IMG/VR virus record: IMGVR_UViG_3300025789_000018
Reading direction: 5' to 3' (one strand)
DNA: 64,000 nt
From: a virus
Lineage: Duplodnaviria; Caudoviricetes
Shown: piece by piece, positions 910-29,442 of the stretch
How positions within the stretch are numbered: the first letter of the stretch is position 1
Layout: each line of letters begins with the position of its first letter
Notes under the pieces: generated by a model
What the model was told of the DNA's origin: nothing
Seen by the model: only the letters and a program-made list of their open reading frames with translations
Database searches by the model: none
Translations under genes and position numbers: made by a program

Positions 910-937
910 ATCATAGCTGATTCGTGGAATAAGTCAA
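910..937 (-). promoter_or_regulatory. sigma70-type early promoter TTGACT-N8-GAATC-N3-TATGAT
   Basis: Minus strand reads ttgact tattccac gaatc agc tatgat, followed by an AGAGAG..CTCTCT hairpin and the SD of 509..865. Confidence 0.8.
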
Positions 938-1494
938 GCAGTTTTGAGCCATTTCATAATGTTTTCAGGTGCAGTCTCGCCGTATGGATCATCATCGACA
1001 TTGTGACCAAAGCCAGGTTCAATGAACCACTTTTCGATCTTGCCGTTGTTTACCACTACAGCATAACGCCAGGAACGTGTGCCAAAGCCAAGATTTTCCT
1101 TATTCACTAGCATCGACATACCACTGGTAAATGTACCAGAACCGTCTGGAATGACCTTGACCTTCTGAAGCTGTTGTGACTTGGCCCAAGCATTCATTAC
1201 AAAGGCATCATTGACTGAGATGCAATATACATCATCAATGCCTAGTGCCTTGAAGTCTTTATAGTTTTCTTCGAAACCAGGAAGCTGATATGTCGAACAA
1301 GTAGGTGTAAAGGCACCAGGAAGAGAAAATAGAACTACGCGCTTGTTTGCAAAATAGTCAAACGAAGTCCTTTTTTCCCAACGATAAGGATTTGGTCCTT
1401 CAATCGAATCGTCACGCACACGAGTCTTGAATACTACGTTTGGAACGACTTCTGGTAGATACTCTTCGGGATCATACTGATGTGTCTGGTACAT
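934..1494 (-). CDS. peroxiredoxin, Prx5/PrxV type
   Basis: VVLFSLPGAFTPTCS active-site motif, ISVNDAFVM, RSWRYA. Confidence 0.92.
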   Translation of the reverse strand: MYQTHQYDPEEYLPEVVPNVVFKTRVRDDSIEGPNPYRWEKRTSFDYFANKRVVLFSLPGAFTPTCSTYQLPGFEENYKDFKALGIDDVYCISVNDAFVMNAWAKSQQLQKVKVIPDGSGTFTSGMSMLVNKENLGFGTRSWRYAVVVNNGKIEKWFIEPGFGHNVDDDPYGETAPENIMKWLKTA

Positions 1495-1497
1495 ATT

Positions 1498-1896
1498 TTA
1501 TCCTTTCATAATACGTTCACGTAGCCCAGAAGAACTATAGTTATGTTCGCGTCTGTTATAATAAATCTCAATGCCTGGCATATATTTGCCAGTAAAAGTT
1601 TTAGACTCATACTCTTCTCCTACAAACCGAATATCAATCTTCTGGGTGAGTAGAAGATTATATAGGTCACCTTCAGTGGAGTATGGAATGATTTTGTCTA
1701 CATATTTACAGGCATTTAACTGTGACCAACGTTCATATACATCTTGAACTGGCTTATTCTTTTCTGGACGATCAATCGTAGGATCAGTCTGAAGTGCTGC
1801 GATAAGAAAATCACAGTGTTCTTTAGCTTCTTCAAGCATAAGAACATGACCCGAATGAAACAGATCAAAGCAGGAACATGTAATACCAATCTTCAT
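1498..1896 (-). CDS. cytidylyltransferase (TagD/glycerol-3-phosphate cytidylyltransferase-like)
   Basis: FDLFHSGH (HxGH) motif, ER..QL..CKYVD, C-terminal YSSSGLRERI. Confidence 0.85.
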   Translation of the reverse strand: MKIGITCSCFDLFHSGHVLMLEEAKEHCDFLIAALQTDPTIDRPEKNKPVQDVYERWSQLNACKYVDKIIPYSTEGDLYNLLLTQKIDIRFVGEEYESKTFTGKYMPGIEIYYNRREHNYSSSGLRERIMKG

Positions 1897-1914
1897 AACA
1901 ATCCTTTATTTCAC

Positions 1915-2076
1915 TTAGACCTTTTCAGTGTCATCAATCACCACTTCAAGACAGACATTATCTCTGCCATAGATTAGGTCCAGACTTTCAGCAAGCTTTA
2001 AAGCAGCTTTATAATCTTCGACCAGACATTCAACAACCATTTCGTAATCTGCGTTCAATGCGTATACGTGAAACAT
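1915..2076 (-). CDS. small hypothetical protein (53 aa)
   Basis: Not in track. MFHVYALNADYEMVVECLVEDYKAALKLAESLDLIYGRDNVCLEVVIDDTEKV with AAAGGAA SD; fills the gap between tRNA-Asn and 1896. Confidence 0.6.
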   Translation of the reverse strand: MFHVYALNADYEMVVECLVEDYKAALKLAESLDLIYGRDNVCLEVVIDDTEKV

Positions 2077-2094
2077 GGTAGTTTCCTTTTTAAA

Positions 2095-2171
2095 TGGCTC
2101 CCTAGATAGGATTCGAACCTATAACGACAAGATTAACAGTCTTGTGCCCCTACCGATAGGGCCCCTAGGGA
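2095..2171 (-). tRNA. tRNA-Asn (GUU)
   Basis: Full cloverleaf: TCCCTAG/CTAGGGA acceptor stem, CAAGA-CTGTTAA-TCTTG anticodon arm, TTCGAAT T-loop, encoded CCA. Confidence 0.92.
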
Positions 2172-2179
2172 ATATAACT

Positions 2180-2650
2180 CTACTTATAACGCTCGTTGAT
2201 GAATGCAAACCACTTGTGATAGAGCCCGACTTCTTTGCCGTAAGCTTCTACCTCCCAAGGCGAATCAAAATAGTTATCTTCATGCCGCTTGGGCTTCCAG
2301 ATTTCGCCTTGCCACTTGCTGCTGATCTTTAGACCACCCCTCGTAGGGATCACGATACCGCGTTGAAGTTCATTCTTAGCGTGTTGCTTAACATGGACCA
2401 TTTCGTGCGCTAGAGTTTTAATCATACCGTCGATCTTCTGGCGCTTGAGACGAATCGTGAACCACCGAGGATTCCTAGTGCCCTGCTCATCAACACATTC
2501 GCCTTCGGCGTCTAGATTTGTTTCAATCTCCAGATCAATGGATAGATTGCGAACCATACGAGGATCCATCAACTGGCGCGCAAAAAACTCTGCTGCCTCG
2601 GTGAGTTCCTCAGCTTTGGTCGCATTGATACCTGATACGTGAACTTCCAT
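2180..2650 (-). CDS. putative zinc metallopeptidase-like protein (HExxH)
   Basis: TLAHEMVHVKQ and downstream PWEVEAY motif. Confidence 0.65.
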   Translation of the reverse strand: MEVHVSGINATKAEELTEAAEFFARQLMDPRMVRNLSIDLEIETNLDAEGECVDEQGTRNPRWFTIRLKRQKIDGMIKTLAHEMVHVKQHAKNELQRGIVIPTRGGLKISSKWQGEIWKPKRHEDNYFDSPWEVEAYGKEVGLYHKWFAFINERYK

Positions 2651-2674
2651 TTCATCTCCATCGTCTATGATCTG

Positions 2675-2703
2675 AACCTATCATGATTCGCGATGAATGT
2701 CAA
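2675..2703 (-). promoter_or_regulatory. sigma70-type early promoter TTGACA-N8-GAATC-N4-TAGGTT
   Basis: Minus strand reads ttgaca ttcatcgc gaatc atga taggtt, upstream of the GGAG SD of 2180..2650. Confidence 0.7.
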
Positions 2704-2707
2704 GTGG

Positions 2708-2944
2708 TTAATTTGGCAACCGAAGGCCTTCAGGATTGATAGGCTCAAGGGTCTTGAACCCCCATTCGACACGACCATCTTCGAGGCGAGGAAGTTCTTG
2801 ATCTTTCTTCCACTTGAGCCAACCGTTTCCGTAACCGTTGAACCCCCAGTGGCGAGAGAACCACTGACCATCCTCGCGGACAGCAGCATGAATGTGACGG
2901 CCGTAGGAGTCATGCCCCATGAACGCTTCGATTGCCTTTGCCAT
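2708..2944 (-). CDS. hypothetical protein (early, 78 aa)
   Basis: ORF starts inside the 63-bp promoter/RBS repeat. Confidence 0.7.
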   Translation of the reverse strand: MAKAIEAFMGHDSYGRHIHAAVREDGQWFSRHWGFNGYGNGWLKWKKDQELPRLEDGRVEWGFKTLEPINPEGLRLPN

Positions 2945-3004
2945 AACGAATCACCTTTCTCACTAACTACATTCTCAATGTAGCTGATTCTGAAAAAATG
3001 TCAA
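2942..3004 (-). repeat. 63-bp exact direct repeat copy 1 (promoter + stem-loop + SD + ATG)
   Basis: Identical to 3200..3262. Contains TTGACA-N8-GAATC-N3-TACATT, the CTACATT/AATGTAG hairpin and GAAAGGTGA SD. Confidence 0.95.
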
Positions 3005-3010
3005 GAGATA

Positions 3011-3202
3011 TCAGAAGCGTTCAGGACCGCCACAGATGCCTACCGCAAAGGGATACCAAGCGGTAATCGCAGCAATGGCAACGAACGGAATAGCGATGAA
3101 AAACTTAATCAACGCAATGGGATGCATAAAACTAACGAGTTCCTTGAACCCAAAGAGTTCTAGGGCAACCAGAGCGAATGCAATAGCAAAAATCTTAATC
3201 AT
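3011..3202 (-). CDS. small membrane protein (early, 63 aa)
   Basis: Two hydrophobic segments; start lies inside repeat copy 2. Confidence 0.7.
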   Translation of the reverse strand: MIKIFAIAFALVALELFGFKELVSFMHPIALIKFFIAIPFVAIAAITAWYPFAVGICGGPERF

Positions 3203-3262
3203 AACGAATCACCTTTCTCACTAACTACATTCTCAATGTAGCTGATTCTGAAAAAATGTCAA
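3200..3262 (-). repeat. 63-bp exact direct repeat copy 2 (promoter + stem-loop + SD + ATG)
   Basis: Identical to 2942..3004. Confidence 0.95.
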
Positions 3263-3444
3263 TCGGTAATGTCAACTTTGTGGCAAAAAAATGCAGGGGT
3301 GGCTCCATTGAAACCACCTCCTGAGTTTAAGAAACGACAGATAGATTTCACCTTGTCTTCCTCGGCTGAGGAATAGATGGTAAACCCAGTGGTTGTCTCA
3401 AAAATGTGGTACTTACCATCGAACGTTCTGATTCTGTATATCAA
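3259..3444 (-). CDS. hypothetical protein (61 aa)
   Basis: Start overlaps the gp41 stop (ATGA). Confidence 0.65.
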   Translation of the reverse strand: MIYRIRTFDGKYHIFETTTGFTIYSSAEEDKVKSICRFLNSGGGFNGATPAFFCHKVDITD

Positions 3445-4886
3445 GTCATTCTCAATCCGCTAAAATCTTTACGGCCGGCAGCCTTAGTCATCCACTTCAT
3501 ATTGTCTTCTTCGTTGGCACGAATACCGACCTGAGTGTTGTCCATTACCGGCTTGTCCTGATACTTATCTTTCTTAGGACCTTCTAGAATATTCTCTTGC
3601 TCAGAATCATCCACATCATGAAAACGCATCTTAGACTTGTTTACACCGATAACGAACCTCTTGTTTTCATTGATATCGCTATAGCGGTTCTTCAACTGCT
3701 TGACAAGGATCTGGTTCATTTCAGCCAGTTCATCTGTTACCATCAGAGCAAACATGAAGTCTACTGTTGCAGGCAAGCCAAATGATTCAGAGGTGTTGTC
3801 TAGCCCAAGATCAGAAGAGTTATAACCATCACGATTTGACTGTGTAGCCGTGATGATTGGTAGATCAAACTCAACCGCAAGACCACGTAGTTCTTCGGCA
3901 ATCGACTTGATGTACATATAACTATTTACAGAACCACCCATCTTCATACGTGTAGAAGCACAAATGTTTAGATAGTCAACGTAGATTACATCTGGTTTGA
4001 AGTTCTTCTTAATACGAAGTTCTTGCAATAGATGCCGGAAGTGTGCAGCACCAGCAGATGATGTTGGATACTCCTTGATAATCAACTTGCCTTGTGTTGA
4101 TGACTTGATTCGATTGATCTTCTTGTTGAAAGAATCTTTCGGTAGATCACGAAGTTCGTCCATCGTGATATTCATCAAGTTGGCGTCAATACGTTCTGCA
4201 ATCCGCTCTTCGGACATTTCCATGGTGATATAGAGAACGTTCTTGCCCATGTCCAGATGATTCGCTGCACAGTGCGTCATAAACATCGTCTTACCAACGC
4301 CTGTGGACGCTAGAATACAAGACAACGTTTTCTTAGATACACCACCCTTAGTAATCTTATTGAAATACTTCAGGTCAAACTCTAGCTTCTCTTCCTTCAG
4401 ATGGTAGAAGTCATACCTCTGTTCAGCATCACCAAGAAAGTCATGCCCGATGTTTGTATCAAAAGAGACTGCCAGAGCCTCAGTTAGAATCTCTGGCAAT
4501 GCTCCTTTACCGCGTTTGTCATCTTTGCCATCAATGATCTTGATGGAGTCCATGATTGCATTATAGACGGCTCGTTCTTGACAGAACTTCTCCGTTTCGT
4601 TAAACAACCAATCAATGGACGTAGCCAAGTCTGCATTGAATGTCTGTACAGTATCTTTGCAGATTGAATACTCATCTTCACTAATATTTGTGAGAGACAA
4701 GATTTCAGACTGCAAAGCTTCCTTTGTAGGCACCCTGTAATAAGTCTTGACATACTTGTCAATAAGTCCAAACACGATCTTGTTAGGCCGTGTTTGGAAG
4801 TATTCGGTCTTCAGGAATGGGATCACCTTTCTGCAATATTCTTCATTATAAAGTAGATGTGAAAAGATTACCTGTTCTTCAATCAC
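3441..4886 (-). CDS. gp41: replicative DNA helicase (T4 gp41-like, DnaB family)
   Basis: Walker A ASTGVGKT, VLYITMEM, IYVDYL, TATQSNR, QLKNRY. Confidence 0.95.
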   Translation of the reverse strand: MIEEQVIFSHLLYNEEYCRKVIPFLKTEYFQTRPNKIVFGLIDKYVKTYYRVPTKEALQSEILSLTNISEDEYSICKDTVQTFNADLATSIDWLFNETEKFCQERAVYNAIMDSIKIIDGKDDKRGKGALPEILTEALAVSFDTNIGHDFLGDAEQRYDFYHLKEEKLEFDLKYFNKITKGGVSKKTLSCILASTGVGKTMFMTHCAANHLDMGKNVLYITMEMSEERIAERIDANLMNITMDELRDLPKDSFNKKINRIKSSTQGKLIIKEYPTSSAGAAHFRHLLQELRIKKNFKPDVIYVDYLNICASTRMKMGGSVNSYMYIKSIAEELRGLAVEFDLPIITATQSNRDGYNSSDLGLDNTSESFGLPATVDFMFALMVTDELAEMNQILVKQLKNRYSDINENKRFVIGVNKSKMRFHDVDDSEQENILEGPKKDKYQDKPVMDNTQVGIRANEEDNMKWMTKAAGRKDFSGLRMT

Positions 4887-5035
4887 TTAACATCCTCCTT
4901 ATAGTCAATAAGTCTCACGAACTCTTGACGCTTTTTATAGTGCCAACCCATCTTGCTAATCCAACCAGTGCCTGGATTAGATCCTTGTTCATTCAAATAT
5001 TCTTTGAACTTAACTTCAAACTCTTCTTTAGTCAA
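4883..5035 (-). CDS. small hypothetical protein between uvsX and gp41 (50 aa, TTG start)
   Basis: Not in track. MTKEEFEVKFKEYLNEQGSNPGTGWISKMGWHYKKRQEFVRLIDYKEDVK; overlaps the uvsX stop and the gp41 start. Confidence 0.5.
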   Translation of the reverse strand: MTKEEFEVKFKEYLNEQGSNPGTGWISKMGWHYKKRQEFVRLIDYKEDVK

Positions 5036-6093: not shown

Positions 6094-6135
6094 ATAATCT
6101 CCTTGGTTTAAACCAGTATTCACTGTATCACAAAA

Positions 6136-6387
6136 TCACTTCTTAGGCAATGTTTTTCCAGCGATCTTGTATAGTTTCTTGCGAAACTCTTCAATCTTTG
6201 CAGCACGATTTGGCCAATGGATGACATCTTTGTCTGCATCCTTGGCTAGATTGTCTAGTAGTGGTGTGATAGCTTTGAGTAGCTTGTCAATCGTTTGATC
6301 GTTCTTTGTTGTCTTAGAGACAATAATCGGTGCTGCAATATCTTCCGATGTGGTCGATGTGAAGCCAAAATCAAAATCTTCGTCCAT
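6136..6387 (-). CDS. hypothetical protein downstream of DNA polymerase (83 aa)
   Basis: MDEDFDFGFT...; TAATG overlap with the gp43 stop. Confidence 0.7.
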   Translation of the reverse strand: MDEDFDFGFTSTTSEDIAAPIIVSKTTKNDQTIDKLLKAITPLLDNLAKDADKDVIHWPNRAAKIEEFRKKLYKIAGKTLPKK

Positions 6388-10393: not shown

Positions 10394-10939
10394 TTATTTT
10401 CCTTCTCTTTCAGCCAGATATTCTGCGGTAGAAGAAGATTTTTTTGTTGTATGGATATCATGTTTGTCTTGAATGTCAATCTTCTTCGGTTTCTTATGTT
10501 CTGGAATGACATACTCCAGACCAACGCGAAGAATCCCATTTAGAAGTTCTGCGCCAGTGATTTCAACATGATCAGCAAGTGTGAACTGGCGCGTAAATGG
10601 ACGCATTGCCAATCCTTGATGTAGAAATAGTGGCCAAGTCCATTCGCCTTCTGAATCTTTCTCAGAAGATTCACCTGACTTGACATTGCCCTTAATAGTT
10701 AGTTTACCATCAGAGAGTTCAACGTCAATATCTTCGCGCGCGAAACCCGCAACTGCCACTTCAATGACATACTTGTTTTCATCAATCTTTTTGATGTTGT
10801 ATGGTGGGTAGTTCGTAGAAAGCTTTGCTGTCTGCTCTGCCGCTGATGCTAGTTTCTGTACTAGAGGATCAAAGCCAACAAAAAACTTATCTATTTCTGG
10901 GGTAAAAGCAAAGCTTGAGCCGTAAAAAGTGTTAGCCAT
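10394..10939 (-). CDS. hsp20: small heat-shock protein Hsp20 (IbpA-like)
   Basis: YPPYNIKK, VAVAGF, HQGLAMRPFTRQFTLADHV, NGIL; start at ATG 10939 after AGGAG. Confidence 0.93.
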   Translation of the reverse strand: MANTFYGSSFAFTPEIDKFFVGFDPLVQKLASAAEQTAKLSTNYPPYNIKKIDENKYVIEVAVAGFAREDIDVELSDGKLTIKGNVKSGESSEKDSEGEWTWPLFLHQGLAMRPFTRQFTLADHVEITGAELLNGILRVGLEYVIPEHKKPKKIDIQDKHDIHTTKKSSSTAEYLAEREGK

Positions 10940-10999
10940 ATTAGTTCTCCTATTTAAGCGAGAGTTGATGTAATGTCTACCCATTTGGCATAGACGAGT

Positions 11000-16144: not shown

Positions 16145-16630
16145 CTATCTCTTATGCTCTAGATCGTGTACGTACAAAGCTATAATAGCATAATGTATTA
16201 CTTTCATCAAGTCTTTTCTCCAATCGTCTGTAGATCCTTTTTGACCGTAACGACCAGAATACTTATCAACATTGCCTAGACAAAATCCTAGTCCACGACC
16301 ACGATCAATCGCAATTTCAGTTGATTGTATGTTGCCTTGCGCATAGTGTTCGCCATACGTCTTATCGATATAATCGGCGATTTCTTGAAGTGCTTTGTCT
16401 TCGTTGTATTTATAATCGATTTTTGATGGTTGTATTCTACGAAAAAACTCTTCATTAGTTTCTCCATTATATTGATTATGTTGTTTTTTCATTTCTTTAC
16501 GATTAAGTTCATCTGCCAAATATGTGTCGATTGGGCGTTTATACGGGCTGTCTGCTACCTGCCGTCTTACAAAGTCCTCCCAAGTTTCTATTCCAAGACC
16601 AACTGGATTTAATCCATCACTTTCACTCAT
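16145..16630 (-). CDS. conserved phage protein (DUF3310-like)
   Basis: YKYNED..L, TYGEHY, GFCLGNVDKYSGRYGQKG, DLMKVIHYA. Confidence 0.65.
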   Translation of the reverse strand: MSESDGLNPVGLGIETWEDFVRRQVADSPYKRPIDTYLADELNRKEMKKQHNQYNGETNEEFFRRIQPSKIDYKYNEDKALQEIADYIDKTYGEHYAQGNIQSTEIAIDRGRGLGFCLGNVDKYSGRYGQKGSTDDWRKDLMKVIHYAIIALYVHDLEHKR

Positions 16631-17079
16631 TCTTCACCTTCCATTTCATATTGCAGATAAATCACACCCGCTTCTTCAAGAATGTCTTTAGCGAGTTTTG
16701 TGGATTCTTTCCAGTGTTCAGGCAGATTCTTAGGAACTTCTGCAATAACAGTTCTGATGCCAACTTGAATGATACCTTTGCAACATTCAGAGCATACAGG
16801 TAAACCATACACGTATAGTTTGGCTCCGTCAAGAGATATTCCATTTAAACATGCATTATAGATGCAGTTCATTTCTCCGTGAACGACATACTTATACTTC
16901 GTTTCACGATCATTCAAGCGATCATCATCTTTGATACCTCTTGGAAAGCCATTGTATCCAGTTGCCAGGACATTTTGATTTTTTCCAATAGCAACAACAC
17001 CAATCTGTTTAGATGGATCTTTTGACCAAGTTGAGATATTCTTAGCCGTATCCAAATGACGGCGTGTCCACTTATGCAT
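16627..17079 (-). CDS. cd: dCMP deaminase
   Basis: TGYNGFPRG, VVHGEMNCI, PVCSECC zinc motifs. Confidence 0.9.
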   Translation of the reverse strand: MHKWTRRHLDTAKNISTWSKDPSKQIGVVAIGKNQNVLATGYNGFPRGIKDDDRLNDRETKYKYVVHGEMNCIYNACLNGISLDGAKLYVYGLPVCSECCKGIIQVGIRTVIAEVPKNLPEHWKESTKLAKDILEEAGVIYLQYEMEGEE

Positions 17080-17993
17080 TATACAGTTTCTTTCTTCAAA
17101 CGAACTAGTTTCATTCCGTAGTTGTCTACTTTAGGTAGTGACTTCAGATCAATGTCTTTCTTCATAATCAACTGGTTCTTCTTGAATGGACCATAGTCAA
17201 CGTAATGATGCCATCTACCGTAGCGAAATACCATGCGGGCCACGTCTGGATGCATGTCTACGAGCATTTGTGACTTGTTGATTGTTCCCTCTGGATTAAG
17301 CTGGCCATCTCTCCATTGAGCCTTGTCTTGTGTGCCTTCAGCATGATAAAACTCAGCAGTGTTACCACCTTTGACAGTCTGTGTTGCAGCTTTGCCTTGA
17401 AGAAAAGCATTAAACTGAATAGTACAATCACCATCTTTCAATACACGAAGGCAGATATCAGTATCTTCGTTGTAACGACCACGCCAGCGATGCTTACAAT
17501 CATTTCGGATAAGCAATGTGGAATAGATACGAGTGTTTGTTACAAAGGCAGGATACTTCTGATTTGGTGCAATAAAGAAACGATATTGAAAACCAGAGAT
17601 AGGAACATTCTCATATCGGTCAACAAAGTCTTCAGCAACTTTGAAGATCACACCAGATTCAACGCGAATACGACTGTTTTCATGGAGACGATAAAAGTCT
17701 GTGATGTTGTCGTCCATTACCCAGTGACTAGTTGCACCAATAGAGATAGAATGATCCCAGCACCAGTTTCTAGCGCGACCTGGTCCGTCGCCGTGATTAC
17801 TGAAAGGTGCAACTAGAAGAGTGACATACTCACGGATGCCAAAGTTGTCTAGTGCTTGTTCATACAAAGCTTCATCCTGTGGTTCAATCGCAATGTAATG
17901 TGGCACTTTCATTCGTGCCAATGAACGAGAGGTCAGCATTGATTCATGCCGACCTTTACTAATGATATAGACAGGATATTTTGGATTAGTCAT
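17079..17993 (-). CDS. putative glycosyltransferase, TAGT/GREB1-like family
   Basis: YPVYIISKGR, ARNWCWDHS, HWVMDDNI, RGRYNEDTDICL, GGNT; start MTNPKY overlaps the partner stop. Confidence 0.65.
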   Translation of the reverse strand: MTNPKYPVYIISKGRHESMLTSRSLARMKVPHYIAIEPQDEALYEQALDNFGIREYVTLLVAPFSNHGDGPGRARNWCWDHSISIGATSHWVMDDNITDFYRLHENSRIRVESGVIFKVAEDFVDRYENVPISGFQYRFFIAPNQKYPAFVTNTRIYSTLLIRNDCKHRWRGRYNEDTDICLRVLKDGDCTIQFNAFLQGKAATQTVKGGNTAEFYHAEGTQDKAQWRDGQLNPEGTINKSQMLVDMHPDVARMVFRYGRWHHYVDYGPFKKNQLIMKKDIDLKSLPKVDNYGMKLVRLKKETV

Positions 17994-18336
17994 CAGTTTC
18001 AATCCACCTACGAAGTGCATTTGCATCACGATCTAGCTTTGGATGCCAGATGCTTTTTGTTTTGATAGTAAGATGCTGATCGATCAACTTGGCAAACTCT
18101 TCATAGTCTTCTTTGTTACGGAAGCTTACGTAAATCTGTTTATATGGTGGATTAGTATCTTGCTTGAACTCGGGCATTCCTACCCAATGTTTCTTCCACT
18201 TTACATCATCTTGCTCCAAAGTTTCGTCTTCAGGCAAGAATGCATCAAGAGTAGATACACCATAAGAGATGTTCTTTGAGTCAATCAGACTTTCGTATTC
18301 TGTAGATTCATCAACTACAGGCTTATTGTCTTCCAT
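17986..18336 (-). CDS. hypothetical protein coupled to the TAGT-like gene
   Basis: HWVGMPEFKQ, VSFRNKEDYEEFAKLIDQ, TKSIWHP; overlaps the downstream start. Confidence 0.7.
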   Translation of the reverse strand: MEDNKPVVDESTEYESLIDSKNISYGVSTLDAFLPEDETLEQDDVKWKKHWVGMPEFKQDTNPPYKQIYVSFRNKEDYEEFAKLIDQHLTIKTKSIWHPKLDRDANALRRWIETDD

Positions 18337-18349: not shown

Positions 18350-18865
18350 TTATGCGATAGCTAGTTTCTTATTGATTTTGTTGAACGCTTTCTGTTGTTT
18401 GAAAGCCTGTTCTTTGTGGATCAAACTAGCGCGATTGATATGAACAATGCCGTTTAGATGATCTAGTTCATGTTGAAACACACGAGCAGTTAGACCTTCA
18501 AACTTTTCTGTTCTCGTTTCGCCGTTAGGCATAGTAAAGCGAACTTTGATCACAGCTGGACGCTTGATCTTTACCGATAGCCCAGGATGACTTAAGCAGC
18601 CTTCTAACATATACACTTGCTCGGCGGAAGAGTCAACGATTTTTGGGTTGAAACATGCAAGAATCTGTTCGCCATTGATGACAAATGCACGATAGGGCAG
18701 ACCGACCTGATTCGCAGCAAGCCCCAAGCCTTTGTTCTCAATCATAGTCTCAGCTAGATCACGAGCCAACTGAATAGGATCAGTAGGTGGATTGCTGAAA
18801 TCAAAATATTCAAGTTCTGTTTTGAGAATAAGATCGTTCTTATCTACAAGAGGTAGAATAGCCAT
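18350..18865 (-). CDS. def: peptide deformylase
   Basis: GLGLAANQVG, EGCLS, QHELDH - the three PDF motifs. Confidence 0.95.
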   Translation of the reverse strand: MAILPLVDKNDLILKTELEYFDFSNPPTDPIQLARDLAETMIENKGLGLAANQVGLPYRAFVINGEQILACFNPKIVDSSAEQVYMLEGCLSHPGLSVKIKRPAVIKVRFTMPNGETRTEKFEGLTARVFQHELDHLNGIVHINRASLIHKEQAFKQQKAFNKINKKLAIA

Positions 18866-19914: not shown

Positions 19915-21619
19915 CACTGAAATTTCTCTTCTTCTCAAAACGAATGATGTTAGTGAATTTGTCCATCAGTGATGCTCCCTTATGTGAAATGATGAACACA
20001 TTGGTGTCAGCCGTTACGCTGCTTAGAATCTTGAAGAACTCATCTGTACCACTAGTATCCAAAGAACTATCAAAAACCTCGTCCATAATCAAAAGATTTG
20101 TGCTGACGCTGTTACGAAGTTTTGCCACTGCTCTCCATGTAAACAAAATAGCTAAATCCAGGCGCATCTTTTCGCCTTCAGAGAATGACGCATAAGAGAA
20201 CTCATCACGAAACCGCGACTTAATCTTTTCATCAAAACTTTCATCAAGTTCAAACTGGACAAAGAAGTCCATTGCCGCAAGATACTTGTTGATTAGCTTG
20301 TTCATGACAGGAACATATTGCTTGATGATCTTGGTCTTGATACCACCATCTTTCAGCAGAACAGCAGCAGTACCCAACAAAGAACGATTTTCGGTTAGTT
20401 CTTCAATAAGTGTGTGAACGTCTTTCAGTTCTTTCTTGGCTTTGTTTAGATCAACAGCATCCGTCTCTACCTTAGTCTGCTTATTACGAAGTGCTTCAAT
20501 CTCTTTCTGCAACTCGCTGTTATACTTCTGGTACATACGAATCTTGTTGTTGCGGTCTGTTATCTCTGCATTATATTCTGAGATTTGATTGCTAATATCA
20601 ACAATCTCTTTCATTCGTGTATTGATCTTCGCCTGTTCTTCTGATAGTTTAGTTAAGGCTGTGTCTAACTCTTCTGCACTGGCAATCTTTGTGTTTAGAT
20701 TTTCTTCCTTGAAAACAGGATCAATGTCTTGTGTACAAGTCGGGCAGTGATCGTGAGTATGCAGAAACTTGATATGCTTGTTATGATCGGTCAGTTTGAA
20801 CTTCAACTCAGAGTGAAGCGTGGTGACCTTGTTCAATCTATCCGTAATAGATTGCTCATCGCCAATATTGAGTTTCAAATCGTCAATCTGTTCGGAGATT
20901 TTGTCAATCTCGGCATTTGCAGTCTCGATCAGAGTTTTATGTTCGTAAATCTTGCCGTGCTTGATGTCGATCAAGTCTTCATTGTTTTGCCGAAGTGATT
21001 CGATATGCTTCTTATTCAAATCAATCTTTTGTTCACAAAGAGCCAGTTGTGTGTTGGCATCCTTTAGTGCATCTTTGTTGTCTTGAATACGTGTCTTCAG
21101 TAGATTGTTCATCGTTGAGAAAATCTGGATATCCAGAAGGTCTTCAATGAAGTCACGTCTAGCTTGTGCTGGCAACTGCATGAAAGGAACAAAGGTAGAA
21201 GCACCGAGCGTGATGATCTGTGAGAATGACTTATGAGACAGCTTCAGGATATTCTTCTCCAGAACGTCCTGATAGTCACCAGACTTGGCTTCTTGATTCA
21301 GTAGAGAACCATCAACAAAGATTTCAAAGACGTTTGGCTTGATGCCACGTCGAACCAGATACTCTTTCTTACCAATAGCGAACTCGATTTCAACAAGCAA
21401 GTTCTTGCCGTTGATCGCATTCAAGAGTTGTGGCTTATTGATCTTGCGAAAGGGTTTACCATAAAGAGCAAACGAAATCGCTTCGATAAAGGTGGACTTA
21501 CCAGCGCCATTTTCACCGACAATCAGAGTTGATGCGGCTTCATTTAGTTTGACTTCTGTAAAGGTATTGCCCGTTGAAAGCAGGTTCCTCCAACGTACTA
21601 CTTTGAATAGAATCATCAT
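19898..21619 (-). CDS. gp46: recombination ATPase (SbcC/Rad50-like)
   Basis: [13 protein letters not shown] zinc hook, FSEGEKMR signature, LIMDEVFD. Confidence 0.95.
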
Positions 21620-21625
21620 TATACC

Positions 21626-21880
21626 TTAGTTTAGATTTATCTTAGGCGGTTCAACAAAGATATATCCCACATCTTTCAAATACTCGATTTGATCATTTGT
21701 TGCTTTGATTGCTGGATAAACTGCCGATCTTTCATAGCTATGATTGAAAGCCCATAGTTGATATATCTCTGCACCACATTTCAATGCATGGAAGCAAAAC
21801 TCACCCAAACTTTTTTTTGAAAGATTGATGCGTTTGCCGTCATGCTCATGGATGTGATATGAGTTTTTATCTTTATGCAT
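21626..21880 (-). CDS. hypothetical protein (84 aa)
   Basis: Fills the gap between gp47 and gp46. Confidence 0.6.
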   Translation of the reverse strand: MHKDKNSYHIHEHDGKRINLSKKSLGEFCFHALKCGAEIYQLWAFNHSYERSAVYPAIKATNDQIEYLKDVGYIFVEPPKINLN

Positions 21881-21886
21881 ATTACC

Positions 21887-22948
21887 TCAATCGATGCTCA
21901 TGGCTTCATCATACAAGGAACGTATCAGATTGTCAAGAGATTTCTTGTCCACATCCAGTTCAAGATTGTCTGTGTATTTCCGCAAAATAGTCAATGTGTC
22001 TTCTGCTTCATCCACAATATCTTCATCGGTTTCAAGGTTGAGATTCAAGTTATCATCAACAACCTGGATGTTTGCTGGGCTAGATTTCTCCATCGTATCA
22101 ATGAACATATCAAACCAATAGGGATTGTTCTTGTTCTTGACGATCACTTTTACGTATGTGTTTCTGTATGGGCTATAGTCAATGTCTGTAAAGTCTGTCA
22201 GTTTTGCATTCGAATCATCATAGACAAACTTGTAGAACATGCGGAATGGATTCTCCACAAAGGTCGCTGTGCGCGTTTCTGTATCAAAGATATGGAAACC
22301 CTTAGGATCGTTATAATCGCTCCAAGTCATCTCATATGGGCAACCAAAGTATGTTATATTGCCTTTAGTTGAGCGGTGATGAAAGTGACCAGAGCCAACA
22401 AAGTCAAACTTCTGAAAGACGCTGGAATCCATACCTTCATGACCAGTATCACCTTTGTACATGGAGAAACCACCAAGTTCTAGGTGACCAAATGCAACCT
22501 GTGCATCAGTCGATTTAATCAGATCCATTGTTTGCTTCTGATTGTCTTCGCAGATCCAAGGAAGCAGCAGCGTCTTCATGCTGCCTAGTTCAATCTCCGC
22601 GGGTTTGGAGATGACTTTGATGTTGTCATAGTCTGATAGCAGAAGGTCTAGAGCATTCATCTCCAGAGTGTTCTTGTAGGGGATTACATGGTTTCCAACT
22701 AGCGTAATCAGAGACATATTATTATCACGGATCTTATCAAACCAGTATGAACGAGCGCGTGACAATGTATAGAAACTAATGTACTTCCGACGGTCTAATG
22801 TATCACCAGTGTCTAGAATAAGATTGATGTCGTGTTCCTTGAGGTATGGAAAGAAGAACTCAGAATAGAAGTTCTCCATCATGTCATGGAACACAACACT
22901 GTCACCGCGTACACCAAAATGCTGATCGGTAATAATAGCAAACTTCAT
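21887..22948 (-). CDS. gp47: recombination nuclease (SbcD/Mre11-like)
   Basis: ITDQHFG, TGDTLD, LVGNH, FGHLE, SGHFHH. Confidence 0.95.
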   Translation of the reverse strand: MKFAIITDQHFGVRGDSVVFHDMMENFYSEFFFPYLKEHDINLILDTGDTLDRRKYISFYTLSRARSYWFDKIRDNNMSLITLVGNHVIPYKNTLEMNALDLLLSDYDNIKVISKPAEIELGSMKTLLLPWICEDNQKQTMDLIKSTDAQVAFGHLELGGFSMYKGDTGHEGMDSSVFQKFDFVGSGHFHHRSTKGNITYFGCPYEMTWSDYNDPKGFHIFDTETRTATFVENPFRMFYKFVYDDSNAKLTDFTDIDYSPYRNTYVKVIVKNKNNPYWFDMFIDTMEKSSPANIQVVDDNLNLNLETDEDIVDEAEDTLTILRKYTDNLELDVDKKSLDNLIRSLYDEAMSID

Positions 22949-22951
22949 GTA

Positions 22952-23131
22952 TTACTTTCCATCATCTAGATATGTCGATAGCGCATGTTCATGACCAACA
23001 AACCAAGCTGCTTTCAACCAAGCCCTAAGTTTGTTGTAGTCTTTTTGATCTAGCATCGAAAAATCATCATCCAATCTATCTTCACGAATAGAGAAGCATT
23101 CAGCTTCATTTAACCAATGTTCAAATGTCAT
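22952..23131 (-). CDS. small hypothetical protein (59 aa)
   Basis: Not in track. MTFEHWLNEAECFSIREDRL...AWLKAAWFVGHEHALSTYLDDGK. Confidence 0.6.
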   Translation of the reverse strand: MTFEHWLNEAECFSIREDRLDDDFSMLDQKDYNKLRAWLKAAWFVGHEHALSTYLDDGK

Positions 23132-23135
23132 ACAC

Positions 23136-23207
23136 TCACTTCCACATATTTATGATTGTACCTATAGCAAACATTACACTACCCGCAAGATAAAACCAGT
23201 TTGCCAT
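23136..23207 (-). CDS. hydrophobic micropeptide (23 aa)
   Basis: MANWFYLAGSVMFAIGTIINMWK; fills the gap exactly between 23209 and 23131. Confidence 0.4.
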   Translation of the reverse strand: MANWFYLAGSVMFAIGTIINMWK

Positions 23208-23208
23208 C

Positions 23209-23424
23209 TTATACAATCTTTCGTTTCTTTGGCTTTGCCAACTCTTCTTGTGCTTGTTTCTTGTCATAGAACTTTACCGCATCATCGCAGTAGTCTCTGA
23301 TATTCATCAAGGTGCGCTTGTAGTTGTCACGAATATAAACATTGTTCGTTGGATCAAACAGGTTCTTCACAACGGCTTCTACGCCTGCGGGAATGTTATT
23401 TTTGTCTGTCTTCATCTTAGTCAC
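23209..23424 (-). CDS. hypothetical protein (71 aa)
   Basis: Coupled to the gp55 stop. Confidence 0.7.
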   Translation of the reverse strand: MTKMKTDKNNIPAGVEAVVKNLFDPTNNVYIRDNYKRTLMNIRDYCDDAVKFYDKKQAQEELAKPKKRKIV

Positions 23425-23986: not shown

Positions 23987-24044
23987 AATATATTCCTTTT
24001 TCTCTTGACTTTTTCCACAGCTTGTATATAATAAGCAATGTGCT

Positions 24045-24398
24045 TTAATGAATACTAGAACTTAGTGGTATTAGAGATTGATCATCATCTTCAGATTGAT
24101 ATCTCATTGATACATTCTTCTCATAGAATGTAACTACTTCTTGCTCTAGATTAGATACGAATATAACATGTTTCTTATCTAAAGTAAAGAGAATATTGAC
24201 ATCATCGAAAGGATTCAATGAGGTAAGATAAGCTTGAAACTTACCAGTGTCTTCTTCGTAATAGCGATTCGCGACCATTGGATACTCAACAACATATCCA
24301 GTTTCAGTCTCAGTATCGAACCTAGACATTACCAACTCTCCTGTTACCAACTTTAATAGAATGTGTGTTGGAACAGGTTCTTTAGATGTCGATGTCAT
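24045..24398 (-). CDS. conserved hypothetical protein
   Basis: LLKLVTGELVM pattern; start moved to ATG 24398, which overlaps the end of the uvsW C-fragment. Confidence 0.65.
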   Translation of the reverse strand: MTSTSKEPVPTHILLKLVTGELVMSRFDTETETGYVVEYPMVANRYYEEDTGKFQAYLTSLNPFDDVNILFTLDKKHVIFVSNLEQEVVTFYEKNVSMRYQSEDDDQSLIPLSSSIH

Positions 24399-24706
24399 AA
24401 ATCTTGAAAGCAAACTCTTCTTCTTCATAAATCTTCTTTCTCTCTTTGAGATGTTGCATAGTATAGTTCTGTTTGGACTTCCATGAAAGGTCATCTGCTA
24501 TATCAAAAAGAGTAACAGAATCTTTTATGTTTGACTTTCTTAACCCTCGACCAATAGACTGAAGTGTTTTGATCTTGGACTTGCCTGGTGATGCAAAGAT
24601 GATATTGTGAATGTTCTTGATGTTAACACCCGTGGAGAAACGTACCAGAACTGGCTACGATAATCGCGCCATGTTCAACCTCCTGTCCCACTTTATTTGG
24701 TTTCAT
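24382..24706 (-). CDS. uvsW: UvsW helicase C-terminal fragment (motifs V-VI), contains an apparent +1 frameshift
   Basis: Not in track. MKPNKVGQEVEHGAIIVASSGT then, in the +1 frame, FSTGVNIKNIHNIIFASPGKSKIKTLQSIGRGLRK...LFDIADD. Length is 325 nt (3n+1). Confidence 0.8.
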
Positions 24707-25364
24707 TTTTCTTATTCTTTCTTCTCTCTAGCATCATTGCTTTGAATGCAGGATCTTTCCAACGCTCTTTTAGTTTGCTACCGTCAGAACCTCTTTTTGG
24801 TCTATTTTTCATTTTTTCTAGATATTCAGGATCTTTCCATTTTTCTTTCAACTTATAGCTAGCGTCTTGTCTCTTATCTATATCACCATTCACTTCCGAC
24901 ATGGTTGTGACAAATCTACTATAAAAAACTTCGTCTGAGTATCGGTTTTTCATATATTCTGTGTGTTGCTTATGTCTCTCTTCCGACCAACTCATATTCT
25001 GCACTCTAACGTTATATTCTTCTGGTGTTAGATTCTTCCATTGTTCTCTAAAAAATACACTAAGATTTTTGCTGTGCAATCTTTTGATCCATCCATACTC
25101 TTTATTACACAAACGTCTATCACTATTATGATACATTAGCATTGTTGTCGCATATATCAGCTTAGGATTATTTGGGTGCATTTTTATCAAAAGCTGATGG
25201 GCAACATAGTGTTCTTCTGGTGTTAGCTTCACAAGATTGCTGGAATCATCAGTGCCACCTAAACATTTAGGAACAATGTGGTGTTTTTCATAATAATCAT
25301 CTACATTGATGCATCTAGTCTTTCCACGTTGTACTAACTCTCCGTAGATTCTCGTGTAGTCCAT
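24693..25364 (-). mobile_element. HNH homing endonuclease (MobE-like) inserted in uvsW
   Basis: YEKHHIVPKCLGGTDDSSNLVKLTPEEHYVAHQLL; TATAAGTA at 25399-25406. Confidence 0.9.
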
Positions 25365-26692
25365 ATAACTTTGCCTATCAATGTTGACGCCTGTATATTA
25401 CTTATACATTTACTGGTGTCAACATCATCATTTTCTGTAATGTTGTCAATTTTTTTCGTTGTACCATCCATTAGAGGTACGTTTTGGCCATCTTTTATTT
25501 TGAGAATGAAGTCATCAAAGTGTAATGATATCACGGTGTTTGTCTGTGTCTCTACCAGTTTACGTATTTCTTCGCGAACGTCACCGTCAACACCGCCATA
25601 GATGAAATGTATAGGTCTATCGCCAGCAGCATCATTGATTGCTTTATACAAGTCTTTGCCGTGCTTCTCCACGTATTGAAAAAGAAGTAGAGTATTACCT
25701 TTTAGAGATAGAGCAAGGTTCTTAACAAACTTGTTACGTGCTTGATTGCCAACAATGAAATCCATTTCCTGTTTGTAGTCATTGTCTTTGTTGACTTTAC
25801 GAACTTCTTCTGCGTACTTTAAGACAAGTATCTTAATCTTCAGTTCGGCCAAATGCTTCTGTTCTATTAGATCAGCCGTTGATGCAACACGCTTTGCTGT
25901 ACCAAATAGCCCTTCTAGTACCAGCTTATTCGTTTCAATGCCGTCTAGTGTACCAGTGAAACCAAACCGATGTTTGCAGTTGACAAGATTGTCCATGATT
26001 GCAGTAAGAGATTTAGCTTTGAAAAGATGACATTCATCACCCATTACCACATCATACTGTGAGAACCAAGACTTTGGTTGCTTATAGATTGACTGCCATG
26101 TTGAAATAGTAAACATAGCATTAGTCTTCTTATCAGCACCAGCAGTGATCTTGTGTACTAGTTCATCATAGCCATAAGACTTAAAATCATCTGCTAACTG
26201 ATGAACCAAAGAAATAGTTGGTACAATGATTAGAGTTTTTTTAGCGTAATACTGTGCGATCATATAAATGATCAATGACTTACCAGAAGCGGTAGGAGAC
26301 AGTAGGAGCGATCTTGTCTTACGTACTGCATGTGCCAGTGCAGCTAACTGGTAATCGCGTGGTGCGAACGGGAGGTTTAAGGATTGAGCAAAATCTTCAG
26401 CTTCCCTTAGTGAAAATGGTGTTTCGTTAAACTCATCACTAAACTGGACATCATATCCACGATTACGAGCGAATGCTAGAACGTTTTGAAACAATCCTGC
26501 ATAGACGGTCTTTGTCATCACATTGAACAAACGAATCTTGCCGTCCCATAGTCTTTGTCTGACTAGAGGATGAAACTTGGCATTTGGTACCATGAACGTA
26601 AAGTATTCTGACAACTCCATAGCTAGACCGCTTTCACAGTCTACTCTGATGTGTACCTCGTTTACCTTTGTGATGTATAATGTGTCTGTCAT
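25334..26692 (-). CDS. uvsW: UvsW SF2 helicase N-terminal fragment
   Basis: WDGKIRLF, SPTASGKS, GDECHLFKAKSL, GFTGTL; helicase similarity ends near REEIRKLVE. Confidence 0.92.
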   Translation of the reverse strand: MTDTLYITKVNEVHIRVDCESGLAMELSEYFTFMVPNAKFHPLVRQRLWDGKIRLFNVMTKTVYAGLFQNVLAFARNRGYDVQFSDEFNETPFSLREAEDFAQSLNLPFAPRDYQLAALAHAVRKTRSLLLSPTASGKSLIIYMIAQYYAKKTLIIVPTISLVHQLADDFKSYGYDELVHKITAGADKKTNAMFTISTWQSIYKQPKSWFSQYDVVMGDECHLFKAKSLTAIMDNLVNCKHRFGFTGTLDGIETNKLVLEGLFGTAKRVASTADLIEQKHLAELKIKILVLKYAEEVRKVNKDNDYKQEMDFIVGNQARNKFVKNLALSLKGNTLLLFQYVEKHGKDLYKAINDAAGDRPIHFIYGGVDGDVREEIRKLVETQTNTVISLHFDDFILKIKDGQNVPLMDGTTKKIDNITENDDVDTSKCISNIQASTLIGKVIWTTRESTES

Positions 26693-27126
26693 TAGTTTCC
26701 GTTTTTAAATCTCTGCCACTCAATATAGTTGCGAACTATGAACCCACGCTCTGTGACGTTCTTGATGATCGACTCAAGCAATGCGGTCTTTTCTTTTTGA
26801 TATGAAATCTTAAGTGTTAAGTTGATAATGTCTTGATCTGAATCGATATGCATCGGAATATCAGACTTAAGAATGGCGCGAGGATTTGGTTTCCATCCAC
26901 TTTCTTCCAGTGTTTCTCGGTCTAGTGTACCCATGAAGTATTCAAACTTCAGGTGATACAACTGCTTATAATCTGCTTCTAACTTCCGAAGCTGTAGTCG
27001 TTCGTTTGAGAATACCTTGTAGTATTTATGATGTAGTTTTGGGATATTTACTGCAACCTGATCAATCGCAGTGGTATCAATCTCTGAGTCTTCTGCCCAG
27101 AGGTCATAGATTTCTTCAAGCTTCAT
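26692..27126 (-). CDS. uvsY: recombination mediator
   Basis: W..DSEID, IPKLHHKYY; canonical position next to uvsW. Confidence 0.85.
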   Translation of the reverse strand: MKLEEIYDLWAEDSEIDTTAIDQVAVNIPKLHHKYYKVFSNERLQLRKLEADYKQLYHLKFEYFMGTLDRETLEESGWKPNPRAILKSDIPMHIDSDQDIINLTLKISYQKEKTALLESIIKNVTERGFIVRNYIEWQRFKNGN

Positions 27127-27137
27127 GAATATAAACC

Positions 27138-27656
27138 TCAAGTTAAGCGGGTGTATGTGTACTCGCGATATGAAAACTCTGCTGTAGCCGTAACGTAGTT
27201 TACATCAGTTTCAGTGGAATCAAATCTGAAACCCGACAGTGAAATGGGGTTGACATCACTAAATGTGATCTTAAGATTTGGATTCATTGTACCATTCAAT
27301 ACAATCAAGTCCGCGTCTACCAGAACACCGAAACCGTTTGGTTGTGCATTCAATGCTGCATACTGATTGAAACTCTCTGGAGTACCAATACCAGTCATCC
27401 AGTCATAGATTTCAAAGTAGTTGTACATGTCTTCATCGATCTTGAATGTCAACGAGAATGTATCAAACGTCAATGGAGTACCTGGCAACTGCATCTTACC
27501 GAAAGGTGTCTGTTGATTTCTGCTAGTGCTTAGACTGATGCGAGGAAAATCAAAGCTTTGGGCAAAGTAGTCAACATTTGGATTCTTGGTGAGATTAAAC
27601 TTATAACCAAGCGGGCTGAGAAAGTCGATTGATACAGGTTGAGTTGGATTTGTCAT
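27138..27656 (-). CDS. gp3: tail completion/tube terminator protein
   Basis: FLSPLGYKF, FKIDEDMYNY.EIYDW, PISLSGFRF, ATAEFSY. Confidence 0.8.
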   Translation of the reverse strand: MTNPTQPVSIDFLSPLGYKFNLTKNPNVDYFAQSFDFPRISLSTSRNQQTPFGKMQLPGTPLTFDTFSLTFKIDEDMYNYFEIYDWMTGIGTPESFNQYAALNAQPNGFGVLVDADLIVLNGTMNPNLKITFSDVNPISLSGFRFDSTETDVNYVTATAEFSYREYTYTRLT

Positions 27657-28276
27657 AAAACATCTTTCTTTTTGTATGGACCTCGTTTGATTCCAGTTCG
27701 CGCTAATCCGCTTTTTCTTCCTGCTTCATTCATCAATTCTTTTGGTCTAGATTTTTGTGCGATAGACTGTTTTTCTTTCCAAACATCACCTCTATTTCTT
27801 GCATTTTCCCTAAACGCGCATAGAGTAGCTTCCGAATACACTCCAGTTTTTCCTTTATTCCAGGGCTCTTTACCAAGTAGGATTTTAGATTTATTATCTT
27901 TCCATTCCTGAGTACGCTCGTATTTGCCCATTTTTGCGCTATTAGATTTAGGCTTCCTCATCTTCTGCCTGGTCTCTTCGGTGTGTTGCCATCCTGATAT
28001 TCTGCCGGCGCTTATATTCTCTACGATCAGATTGGCCCATTCTTTAGATTCTACTATATTATTATCTTCGGAAAACTTGATTGCAAAATCTCTAGCTTCT
28101 TCCTCGTCATAAAACGAGAACAACTCTAACGTTTCTTGTTTAGAATTGTGTTTTTTTAGATGATCTTTCCAGTAGATTCCAGAACCCGTATATGATATGG
28201 GATCGGATCCCATTGTTTTACCGAAATATCTCAGTTCGCAGTGTGTGCATTTTTTCACATAAAGATGTATTGCCAT
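27653..28276 (-). mobile_element. GIY-YIG homing endonuclease (CxxC subtype)
   Basis: IHLYVKKCTHCELRYFGKT, YTGSGIYW, WANLIVEN, HTEETRQKM; TATAAATA at 28304. Confidence 0.85.
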
Positions 28277-28345
28277 GCTGTTACCTATCTGTTTTTACTT
28301 CACTATTTATATCAGATTCACCGTCAAATGTCTAGAGTTTTATGC

Positions 28346-28373
28346 TTGACATTTTATGCGAATCGTGTAATAT
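28346..28373 (+). promoter_or_regulatory. sigma70-type early promoter TTGACA-N8-GAATC-N3-TAATAT
   Basis: ttgaca ttttatgc gaatc gtg taatat, upstream of the GAAAGGA SD of 28403. Confidence 0.85.
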
Positions 28374-28402
28374 GATGATATAGACAGTGAAAGGACAAGA
28401 CA

Positions 28403-28753
28403 ATGAAGCCACTCATTCACGCTAAAGTTTCGGTAAAACGTCATGGTGGTTGTGTAGAAGATTATCTGCCCATTCACAACTTTATCGACTCATCAAAGAT
28501 TTCTATGCCAGATGTACGCCACCGTGCTATTCTGCATAGTTCATTTGGATGCTATCTCGCTGAACAGATGTTCGGTACATACATCACCAATGCTCAAGGC
28601 AAAGATGTGTCTGTACGCGACATTGCAGAAGAACACATTCAAGAAGACTTGGGCTTCATTCCCACTATTGAAAACTGGTTAGAAGAGATTCCACTAAAGC
28701 CTTGGATGTCTGGTGGAGCAAAGAAGCGTCGTGAAGAAAGGCTAGTTGACTGA
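28403..28753 (+). CDS. conserved phage hypothetical protein (His-rich)
   Basis: PLIHAKVSVKRHGG, RHRAILHSSFG, RDIAEEHIQEDLGFIP. Confidence 0.8.
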   Translation: MKPLIHAKVSVKRHGGCVEDYLPIHNFIDSSKISMPDVRHRAILHSSFGCYLAEQMFGTYITNAQGKDVSVRDIAEEHIQEDLGFIPTIENWLEEIPLKPWMSGGAKKRREERLVD

Positions 28754-28832
28754 TGACTTATAGTAATCAAGAAATCTATGAAGTTACTCCCAAAGAAGTT
28801 GTGATTACCAAAACTGTTTATGAAAGGATTAA

Positions 28833-29411
28833 GTGATGAGTGCTTTTGATAATATTACCAAGAAGATCGCTGAAAAGAACTCTGAAATCGATGCGCTTAA
28901 GAAGGCGTACATGAAGGAACTTCAGTCGTCATTCAATGAAATCATCAAGTTGTTCTTTGAGGAATGCCCCAAGGTTCAGGCTGTTGTTTGGTCGCAGTAC
29001 ACTCCATACTTCAACGATGGTGAAGAATGTGTATTCAGCATCAACGAACCGCATTTTATTGTTGAAGGCTTCGATCCTGATGATCTGAAGGATCCTTATG
29101 AATACGAAGATGATGATGAATACAAGACTTTGCAGTATAGCAGTTATCAGACTCTTGAAGAAATCCTGATTCGTTATAAAAATGAACTTGCTAAGCCACA
29201 TGTAAGCGATTGGGTTAAAGGATACTATCCAACGTATATTGCTCAAGTCGAAAAGCAGTTTGAAGAATTTCCTGAATACCACAATAAGATTTTGACGTTT
29301 GTTAAGTTGCTGAACGATAATGAAGATGTACTGCAGGAAGTCTACGGCGATCACGTTGCTGTCTACCTGACTCCAGAAAAGGTTATCGTTGAGGAATATA
29401 GTCACGATTAA
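28833..29411 (+). CDS. conserved phage hypothetical protein
   Basis: WSQYTPYFNDGEECVF motif; acidic. Confidence 0.8.
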   Translation: MMSAFDNITKKIAEKNSEIDALKKAYMKELQSSFNEIIKLFFEECPKVQAVVWSQYTPYFNDGEECVFSINEPHFIVEGFDPDDLKDPYEYEDDDEYKTLQYSSYQTLEEILIRYKNELAKPHVSDWVKGYYPTYIAQVEKQFEEFPEYHNKILTFVKLLNDNEDVLQEVYGDHVAVYLTPEKVIVEEYSHD

Positions 29412-29414
29412 GGG

Positions 29415-29442
29415 TTGACATTTTTAGCGAATCGTATATAGT
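29415..29442 (+). promoter_or_regulatory. sigma70-type early promoter TTGACA-N8-GAATC-N3-TATAGT
   Basis: ttgaca tttttagc gaatc gta tatagt. Confidence 0.85.

Follow-up and report, generated by a model that had tools for sequence, protein, structure and literature searches.

A position-locked GANTC box in the early promoter cassettes of uncultured freshwater T4-like phages, and its possible readers

What is a GANTC site doing at one fixed place in the early promoters of a phage, and which protein, if any, reads it there? This question is raised by IMG/VR record IMGVR_UViG_3300025789_000018, a 64,000-nt stretch (the window) that is part of an uncultured freshwater T4-like myovirus and has a GC content of ∼40%. 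A first-pass annotation of the window had described six σ70-like promoters with the layout TTGAC(A/T)-N8-GAATC-N3/4-TAnnnT and had proposed that they depend on GcrA, a σ70 cofactor of Alphaproteobacteria, and on GANTC methylation by CcrM. Here, we report that this GANTC box is a selected, position-locked cis-element with biased flanks that is present clade-wide, and we weigh what might read it. The clade set consisted of seven contigs (561 kb), including G007, a 171.6-kb contig that is rated complete and shows ∼70% identity to the window in shared genes.

A box locked at 3 bp from the −10 element

All six promoters were present in the window, four on the minus strand and two on the plus strand, and each was intergenic and directed toward small ORFs or tRNA genes. 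Three nucleotides separate GAATC from the −10 element in every site, and the promoter at 2675–2703 can be read with either three (−10 ATAGGT) or four (−10 TAGGTT). The motif is enriched over background, as the pattern TTGAC-N9-GANTC matched the window six times when 0.75 matches were expected (S.D. 0.91), and 0 of 100 shuffles reached six.

The clade contigs were scanned for strong intergenic σ70 promoters in a manner that was blind to GANTC, and the promoters were aligned on the −10 element. In 38 of 59 strong sense-oriented promoters, GANTC was found exactly 3 bp upstream of −10, an arrangement with a chance probability of ∼0.4% per promoter. The distance between the box and the −10 element was constant for both 16- and 17-nt spacers, and several of the box-less promoters were one mismatch away from the site (AAATC, GAATA, and GGTTC). 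The earlier claim that all clear sense promoters carry the site therefore holds for the strong ones in the window and has to be narrowed elsewhere: relatives have the box in 38 of 59 only, and a weaker sense σ70-like site in the window, TTAACA-N16-TATCAT (24599–24626, minus strand), is without GANTC and is the single candidate exception there.

When 53 distinct promoters were compared, information was concentrated at −21 to −16 (CGAATC, 0.8–1.3 bits/position), with 0.1–0.2 bits at −26 to −22 and 0.2–0.4 bits at −15 to −13. An extended-pattern scan matched the cassette to 79 IMG/VR stretches, with 2–6 copies in many contigs, and GA(A/T)TC was present in 57 of 59 distinct promoter cores from such stretches. 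Among 76 distinct box-bearing promoters, the central base was A or T in 75, both GAATC and GATTC occurred, and one strand read GATTCG in 65, in 92% of cases the template one. As heptamers, these upstream boxes were CGATTCG (30), AGATTCG (24), TGATTCG (11), and a few ending in T; 48 of the 76 fit YGAKTCK.

A second GANTC cluster was found at approximately +19 to +23 in 26 of the 53 promoters. These downstream sites read YGAKTCG in 25 of 26 cases (TGATTCG in 18, CGAGTCG in 3, TGAGTCG in 2, and inverted in 2), where roughly one in eight would be expected by chance, and the heptamer was mostly on the non-template strand. YGAKTCG made up 31–43% of the intergenic GANTC sites of the clade versus 10–18% of the coding ones; no such consistent contrast was present in six control phages. 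When 16 comparable palindromes were ranked by depletion, GANTC placed in the top four in every clade contig (lowest or second lowest count in five of seven), with observed/expected ratios of 0.73–0.91, and its density was higher in intergenic than in coding DNA (1.3-fold in the window and 2–2.6-fold in G007 and G008).

In more distant relatives (G002–G006, DLP_6, phiM12, Cr30, Mosig, and Melnitz), motif counts were at background only. In Cr30, GAWTC-N3-TAnnnT was mildly above its control (15 versus 3), and the intergenic copies were not promoter-like. As a separate observation, the 159550 region of phiM12 (locus L178) has an isolated intergenic TTGACC-N7-GAATC-N5-TAATTT, which is the exact GcrA geometry of the Caulobacter promoter PcsM.

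Six copies of a PeSL-like early cassette

Promoter-early stem-loops (PeSLs) are cassettes of T4-type phages (Arbiol 2010, PMC2839356; Comeau 2014, PMC4122927). Like PeSLs, the sequences analyzed here combine a conserved σ70 early promoter, a ribosome-binding site, and a start codon, and they are repeated before small ORFs; their leader is conserved clade-wide. They also share with PeSLs a location in plastic regions, where they border indels and module swaps between close relatives. In contig G001, for example, the promoter and leader at 28346–28402 are followed immediately by an inserted module of 1.1 kb (window 27001–28780 versus G001 20248–23188), and in G010 the modules 2671–3010 and 2996–3262 are in swapped order (window 2671–3262 versus G010 53274–53848). 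In addition, the gene for a DUF6915 protein has different upstream neighbors among near-identical contigs. Based on these results, the cassettes are a known kind of mobile early-promoter element, and their behavior matches that of PeSLs. The published PeSL consensus contains a −35, a −10, and a stem-loop only, with no spacer box or GANTC element described (PMC2839356 and PMC4122927).

The two most similar copies are cassettes A (2942–3004) and B (3200–3262), both on the minus strand, which are identical over 63 nt from TTGACA through ATG; the annotation had correctly called their promoters (2977–3004 and 3235–3262) an exact duplication. The spacer boxes of these copies (2986–2990 and 3244–3248) read TGATTCT on the template strand. 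Each leader has a second box, which in copy A is TGATTCG at 2948–2952 (approximately +21), followed by a Shine-Dalgarno sequence and the ATG (2942–2944) of ORF 2708–2944. The corresponding positions in copy B are 3206–3210 for the leader box and 3200–3202 for the ATG of ORF 3011–3202, and both leaders end in AAAGGTGATTCGTTATG. A terminator-like hairpin with a T-run (3298–3318, minus strand) lies directly upstream of copy B and gives it the terminator/promoter composite structure of a PeSL; a simple scan found no upstream hairpin for the other five copies.

The remaining minus-strand promoters, P1 and P2, both read TGATTCG on the template strand, as had been noted. P1 (910–937, TTGACT-N16-TATGAT) has its GAATC box at 919–923 and a leader hairpin, AGAGAG..CTCTCT, downstream of the promoter, and it drives ORF 509–865. 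P2 (2675–2703, TTGACA) has its box at 2685–2689 and drives ORF 2180–2650 and tRNA-Asn (2095–2171). The two plus-strand promoters have CGATTCG on the template strand, again as described. P5 (28346–28373, TTGACA-N16-TAATAT; box at 28360–28364) drives the DUF6915 gene (28403–28753), and P6 (29415–29442, TTGACA-N16-TATAGT; box at 29429–29433), which has a GCGAA..TTCGC hairpin in its leader, drives the ORFs at 29494–30261 and tRNA-Lys/Val (30332–30646).

Contrary to the earlier claim, the spacers are related outside the box too, with a T-run following the −35 element and a C preceding GAATC. Beyond the spacer, the +1 region (AATATAGAGAG-like) and the leader are common to the cassettes. We propose that the six sites are copies of one mobile early cassette, typical of this clade, in which CTTGACA is followed by a spacer of 16 or 17 nt, TAnnnT, and, after a short leader, a ribosome-binding site and ATG. 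Within this cassette, a 6–7-bp box with a GANTC core, reading HGATTCG on the template strand and situated 3 bp upstream of −10, is selected separately, and a second TGATTCG often follows ∼20 nt downstream of the start. A position-locked spacer box in mobile early cassettes points to an unrecognized layer of control.

The window also contains a near-perfect σ70 promoter without GANTC, TTGACT-N16-TATAAT (24005–24032, plus strand), that is antisense into ORF 24045–24494. It is kept in the relative G001 (position 18123), and an antisense RNA or a small gene missed by gene calling may be transcribed from it.

Candidate readers of the box

The known promoters that most invite comparison are the GcrA/CcrM-dependent σ70 promoters of Caulobacter crescentus (Haakonsen 2015, PMC4647560; Wu 2018, PMC5887438; Wu 2023, PMC9976885). 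The published GcrA motif is TGATTCG, or more broadly YGAKTCK, and its sites lie narrowly near −20 or are spread over +2 to +30, with some at −30 ± 2. The PcsM scaffold used for cryo-EM reads TTGACA-CCCGGGC-GAATC-CCTGC-TATAAT, and in the PmipZ scaffold the non-template strand carries AGAGTCG and TGAGTCG beyond the start. Agrobacterium GcrA binds methylated probes only. In the genomes of Alphaproteobacteria with CcrM, GANTC is depleted overall and enriched intergenically (PMC3973325).

The phage promoters resemble the Caulobacter ones in several respects. Their box has a GANTC core, a TGATTCG/YGAKTCK extension, and the size of a site for a monomer, and it is found in the −35/−10 spacer and again within +5 to +30, the downstream box at approximately +19 to +23 falling within the published GcrA zone. 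The polarity is also that of Caulobacter: as in PcsM, the template strand carries the upstream GAKTCG, and as in PmipZ, the non-template strand carries the downstream one. The clade genomes, like those of bacteria with CcrM, have GANTC depleted in coding and enriched in intergenic DNA. The setting differs, being that of phage early cassettes here and of cell-cycle genes in Caulobacter.

Most likely, the reader of the box is a small cofactor that acts with σ70 polymerase, and GcrA is, tentatively, the known candidate that fits best. We consider it possible, and somewhat short of probable, that the box is read by host GcrA together with σ70 polymerase in a way that favors the phage early cassettes. 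In the mechanism that we envisage, the box would dock a small monomeric protein that works with σ70 RNA polymerase and would thereby favor promoters with a box. Host GcrA, an alphaproteobacterial cofactor that contacts σ70 domain 2 and reads m6A-methylated YGAKTCG in the spacer or at +5 to +30, would be the candidate, and the phage early cassettes would preferentially capture GcrA-loaded holoenzyme. In that case, early expression would hinge both on the S-phase GcrA of the host and on whether GANTC is methylated in the DNA that enters the cell. More tentative still is the broader proposal that the early regulon of the clade is built on GcrA boxes and gated by CcrM-type m6A marks from the previous host, which would couple infection to the host cell cycle. 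What reads the box, what methylation contributes, and to which class the host belongs are all points that we infer.

A number of observations weigh against GcrA as the reader. The phage box lies 3 bp from the −10 element, unlike that of PcsM, which lies 5 bp from it, and its center at −18 (hexamer numbering) is outside the −20 ± 1 modeled for GcrA. The GcrA-type context that had been proposed is supported by the position lock, the flank bias, the polarity, and the site near +20, and it is not supported by the position of the center. The core promoters, unlike those of Caulobacter, are near consensus, so no activator should be needed, and some GAATC sites lie upstream of the −35 element; this third cluster, 2 nt upstream of −35 in 6–7 promoters, is where GcrA is modeled not to reach. 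The box is absent from 21 of the 59 strong sense promoters of the clade. In 24 of 76 boxes, AGATTCG mismatches the Y position; this A-type arises where the bases that follow the box form a TGn extended −10. The box near +20 overlaps the ribosome-binding sequence AGGTGAT, and its conservation may be partly translational. The arrangement was not found in Cr30 (Caulobacter) or phiM12 (Sinorhizobium), which are phages of hosts with GcrA. Only freshwater metagenomes, though from many studies, have yielded the DNA of the window, and the contigs that carry the capsid protein are all metagenomic.

Gene searches add to these counterarguments. GcrA (PF07750) was absent from 11 clade contigs (∼0.8 Mb) and from the window ORFs that were scanned, and a CcrM-type methylase was absent from the clade contigs searched. 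No methylase from the two families searched was found in G007. Dam-like D12 methylases occur only in G009 and G010. As methylases turn up only here and there in the clade and belong to types other than CcrM, virion DNA may be unmethylated. Matches to PF01555 were considered as CcrM and rejected; they proved to be SPPY or NPPY enzymes from other classes, the SPPY ones having the motif order of the γ class.

Rather unlikely, in our judgment, is that another protein binds the box, be it a phage activator that serves delayed-early transcription in the manner of T4 MotA, a phage repressor of the early cassettes, or an injected virion protein, in which case the match to the GcrA consensus would be coincidence or convergence. 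In favor of such a protein, the geometry is not that of GcrA. An operator set covering the whole promoter would fit boxes at −40, −18, and +21, and gcrA and ccrM are, as stated above, missing from the contigs searched. About one-third of the strong promoters of G007 are box-less and drive other genes, such as primase, which makes a two-class program possible in which the box-less promoters fire first. A 6–7-bp asymmetric site is, however, small for typical phage repressors, chance is an unlikely source of the exact TGATTCG/YGAKTCG match seen in 25 of the 26 downstream sites, and no recognizable DNA-binding domain was found when ten of 20 clade-specific conserved ORFs were scanned in Pfam, a sub-threshold SWIM finger being the only hint. 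MotA and AsiA (PF09114 and PF09010) were not found in G007–G011 by searches run without a positive control. The phage promoters are like T4 middle promoters in that a short asymmetric box stands at a fixed distance from −10, and they would share with them the use of host σ70 polymerase plus a cofactor. In T4, however, the MotA box is centered at −30 and replaces the −35 element, whereas here TTGACA remains in place at −35 and the box stands at −18; with that, and with neither T4 protein found in those searches, the promoters fall outside the T4 middle class. Early transcription in T4-type phages is thought to be won by strong σ70 promoters, with MotA and AsiA added in T4 proper, and most environmental T4-like phages lack MotA and AsiA to our knowledge.

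The box could also have no dedicated reader and be kept because recombination copies and homogenizes the cassettes, as in PeSL behavior, perhaps while tuning direct contacts of σ region 3 or the β′ zipper with the spacer. The repetition of cassettes together with leader and start codon, of which the exact 63-nt copy is an example, and their position at the borders of indels and module swaps in near-identical relatives, as for PeSLs, speak for such copying, and in many copies the box adjoins a TGn extended −10. We nevertheless regard this account as improbable, because the box is fixed while neighboring spacer positions are nearly free, its distance to −10 is kept for 16- and 17-nt spacers, and the GAATC and GATTC variants both retain GATTCG on one strand. 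The heptamer also recurs in other contexts, where it can be inverted, and GANTC is depleted elsewhere in the clade genomes. Very remote is a role for GANTC as a restriction/modification target or a landmark, for instance for a HinfI-type system, hypermodification enzymes, a recombinase, or a homing nuclease. The modest genome-wide depletion of GANTC and the TET-associated glycosyltransferase encoded in the window are consistent with such a role; yet promoters would be expected to lose a restriction target rather than to fix it, the base-pair-exact spacing to −10 points to transcription, and no GANTC-specific enzyme was identified.

If host GcrA is the reader, take-over by the phage would depend on the DNA methylation and cell-cycle state of the host, and the box would serve as a marker, readable from sequence only, that an uncultured phage has an alphaproteobacterial host. 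If the early regulon as a whole is built on GcrA, it would be the first phage program wired to an epigenetic σ cofactor. If the reader is instead a phage protein, it would represent a new analogue of σ appropriation. A literature search for TGATTCG returned primers only.

Host clues and gene content

The capsid protein of the window (gp23, 35644–37032) is just 60–67% identical to those of cultured phages, namely Stenotrophomonas phage DLP_6, Sinorhizobium phage phiM12, Pelagibacter phage Mosig, Caulobacter phage Cr30, Methylophilales phage Melnitz, and cyanophages, which infect very different hosts. Other candidate host markers were tried and set aside. GANTC depletion was rejected as a marker, with observed/expected ratios of 0.82 in Cr30, 0.62 in phiM12, 0.76 in Mosig, 0.87 in Melnitz, and 0.90 in DLP_6; only G005 was undepleted (1.05). 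G005 and G007, which are related freshwater T4-like genomes with the same GC content (42.1%), differ 2.25-fold in GANTC (1170 versus 519 sites), and box promoters are present only in G007.

A permuted, two-piece transfer-messenger RNA (tmRNA) is encoded in G007 (L132, 14720–15093) and G009 (L151, 11933–12338). The G007 RNA scores 101.8 bits against the Rfam model tmRNA_permuted and 71.8 bits against alpha_tmRNA, and the best clan match of the G009 RNA is a sub-threshold beta_tmRNA. ARAGORN also finds permuted tmRNAs in DLP_6, Melnitz, and Mosig; the trait thus occurs across phages of varied host classes, which indicates that it belongs to the phage lineage and is not diagnostic of the host, and we rejected it as a marker. 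A cassette scan of 185,579 species genomes returned one match, in a gut Acetatifactor metagenome-assembled genome, which is about what chance predicts and gives no host clue. The cyanophage gene psbA was absent from G007–G011. Peroxiredoxin resolves only to “viruses/Pseudomonadota,” and DUF6915 is distributed over phages of many phyla, so neither served as a host clue.

The window has five tRNA genes (Asn, Lys, Val, Leu, and Gln), mostly for codons ending in A or U, and this preference suggests that the GC content of the host is above that of the phage. Clade members have a cluster of 23–25 tRNA genes (L138, 5259–13427 in G007; also L144 and L159).

The gene content of the window is that of a T4-like phage. 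Besides the capsid protein, its structural genes include the portal, sheath, and terminase, and its replication and recombination genes encode a family B DNA polymerase, UvsX, UvsW, UvsY, a gp41-type helicase, and the clamp with its loader. RegA, Hsp20, peptide deformylase, dCMP deaminase, and a TET-associated glycosyltransferase are encoded as well. DUF3310, the dCMP deaminase, and the glycosyltransferase (E = 3e-45) are found together at 16145–18029, a grouping that points to hypermodified DNA and could affect any protein that reads GANTC. The accessory genes, which lie within 10394–10984, 18350–18865, 31825–32604, and 30650–31231, encode Hsp20, the peptide deformylase, a papain-family peptidase, and a β-barrel-like protein. 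The last of these, an outer-membrane β-barrel-like protein, is a weak match in the window and a clear match in G007.

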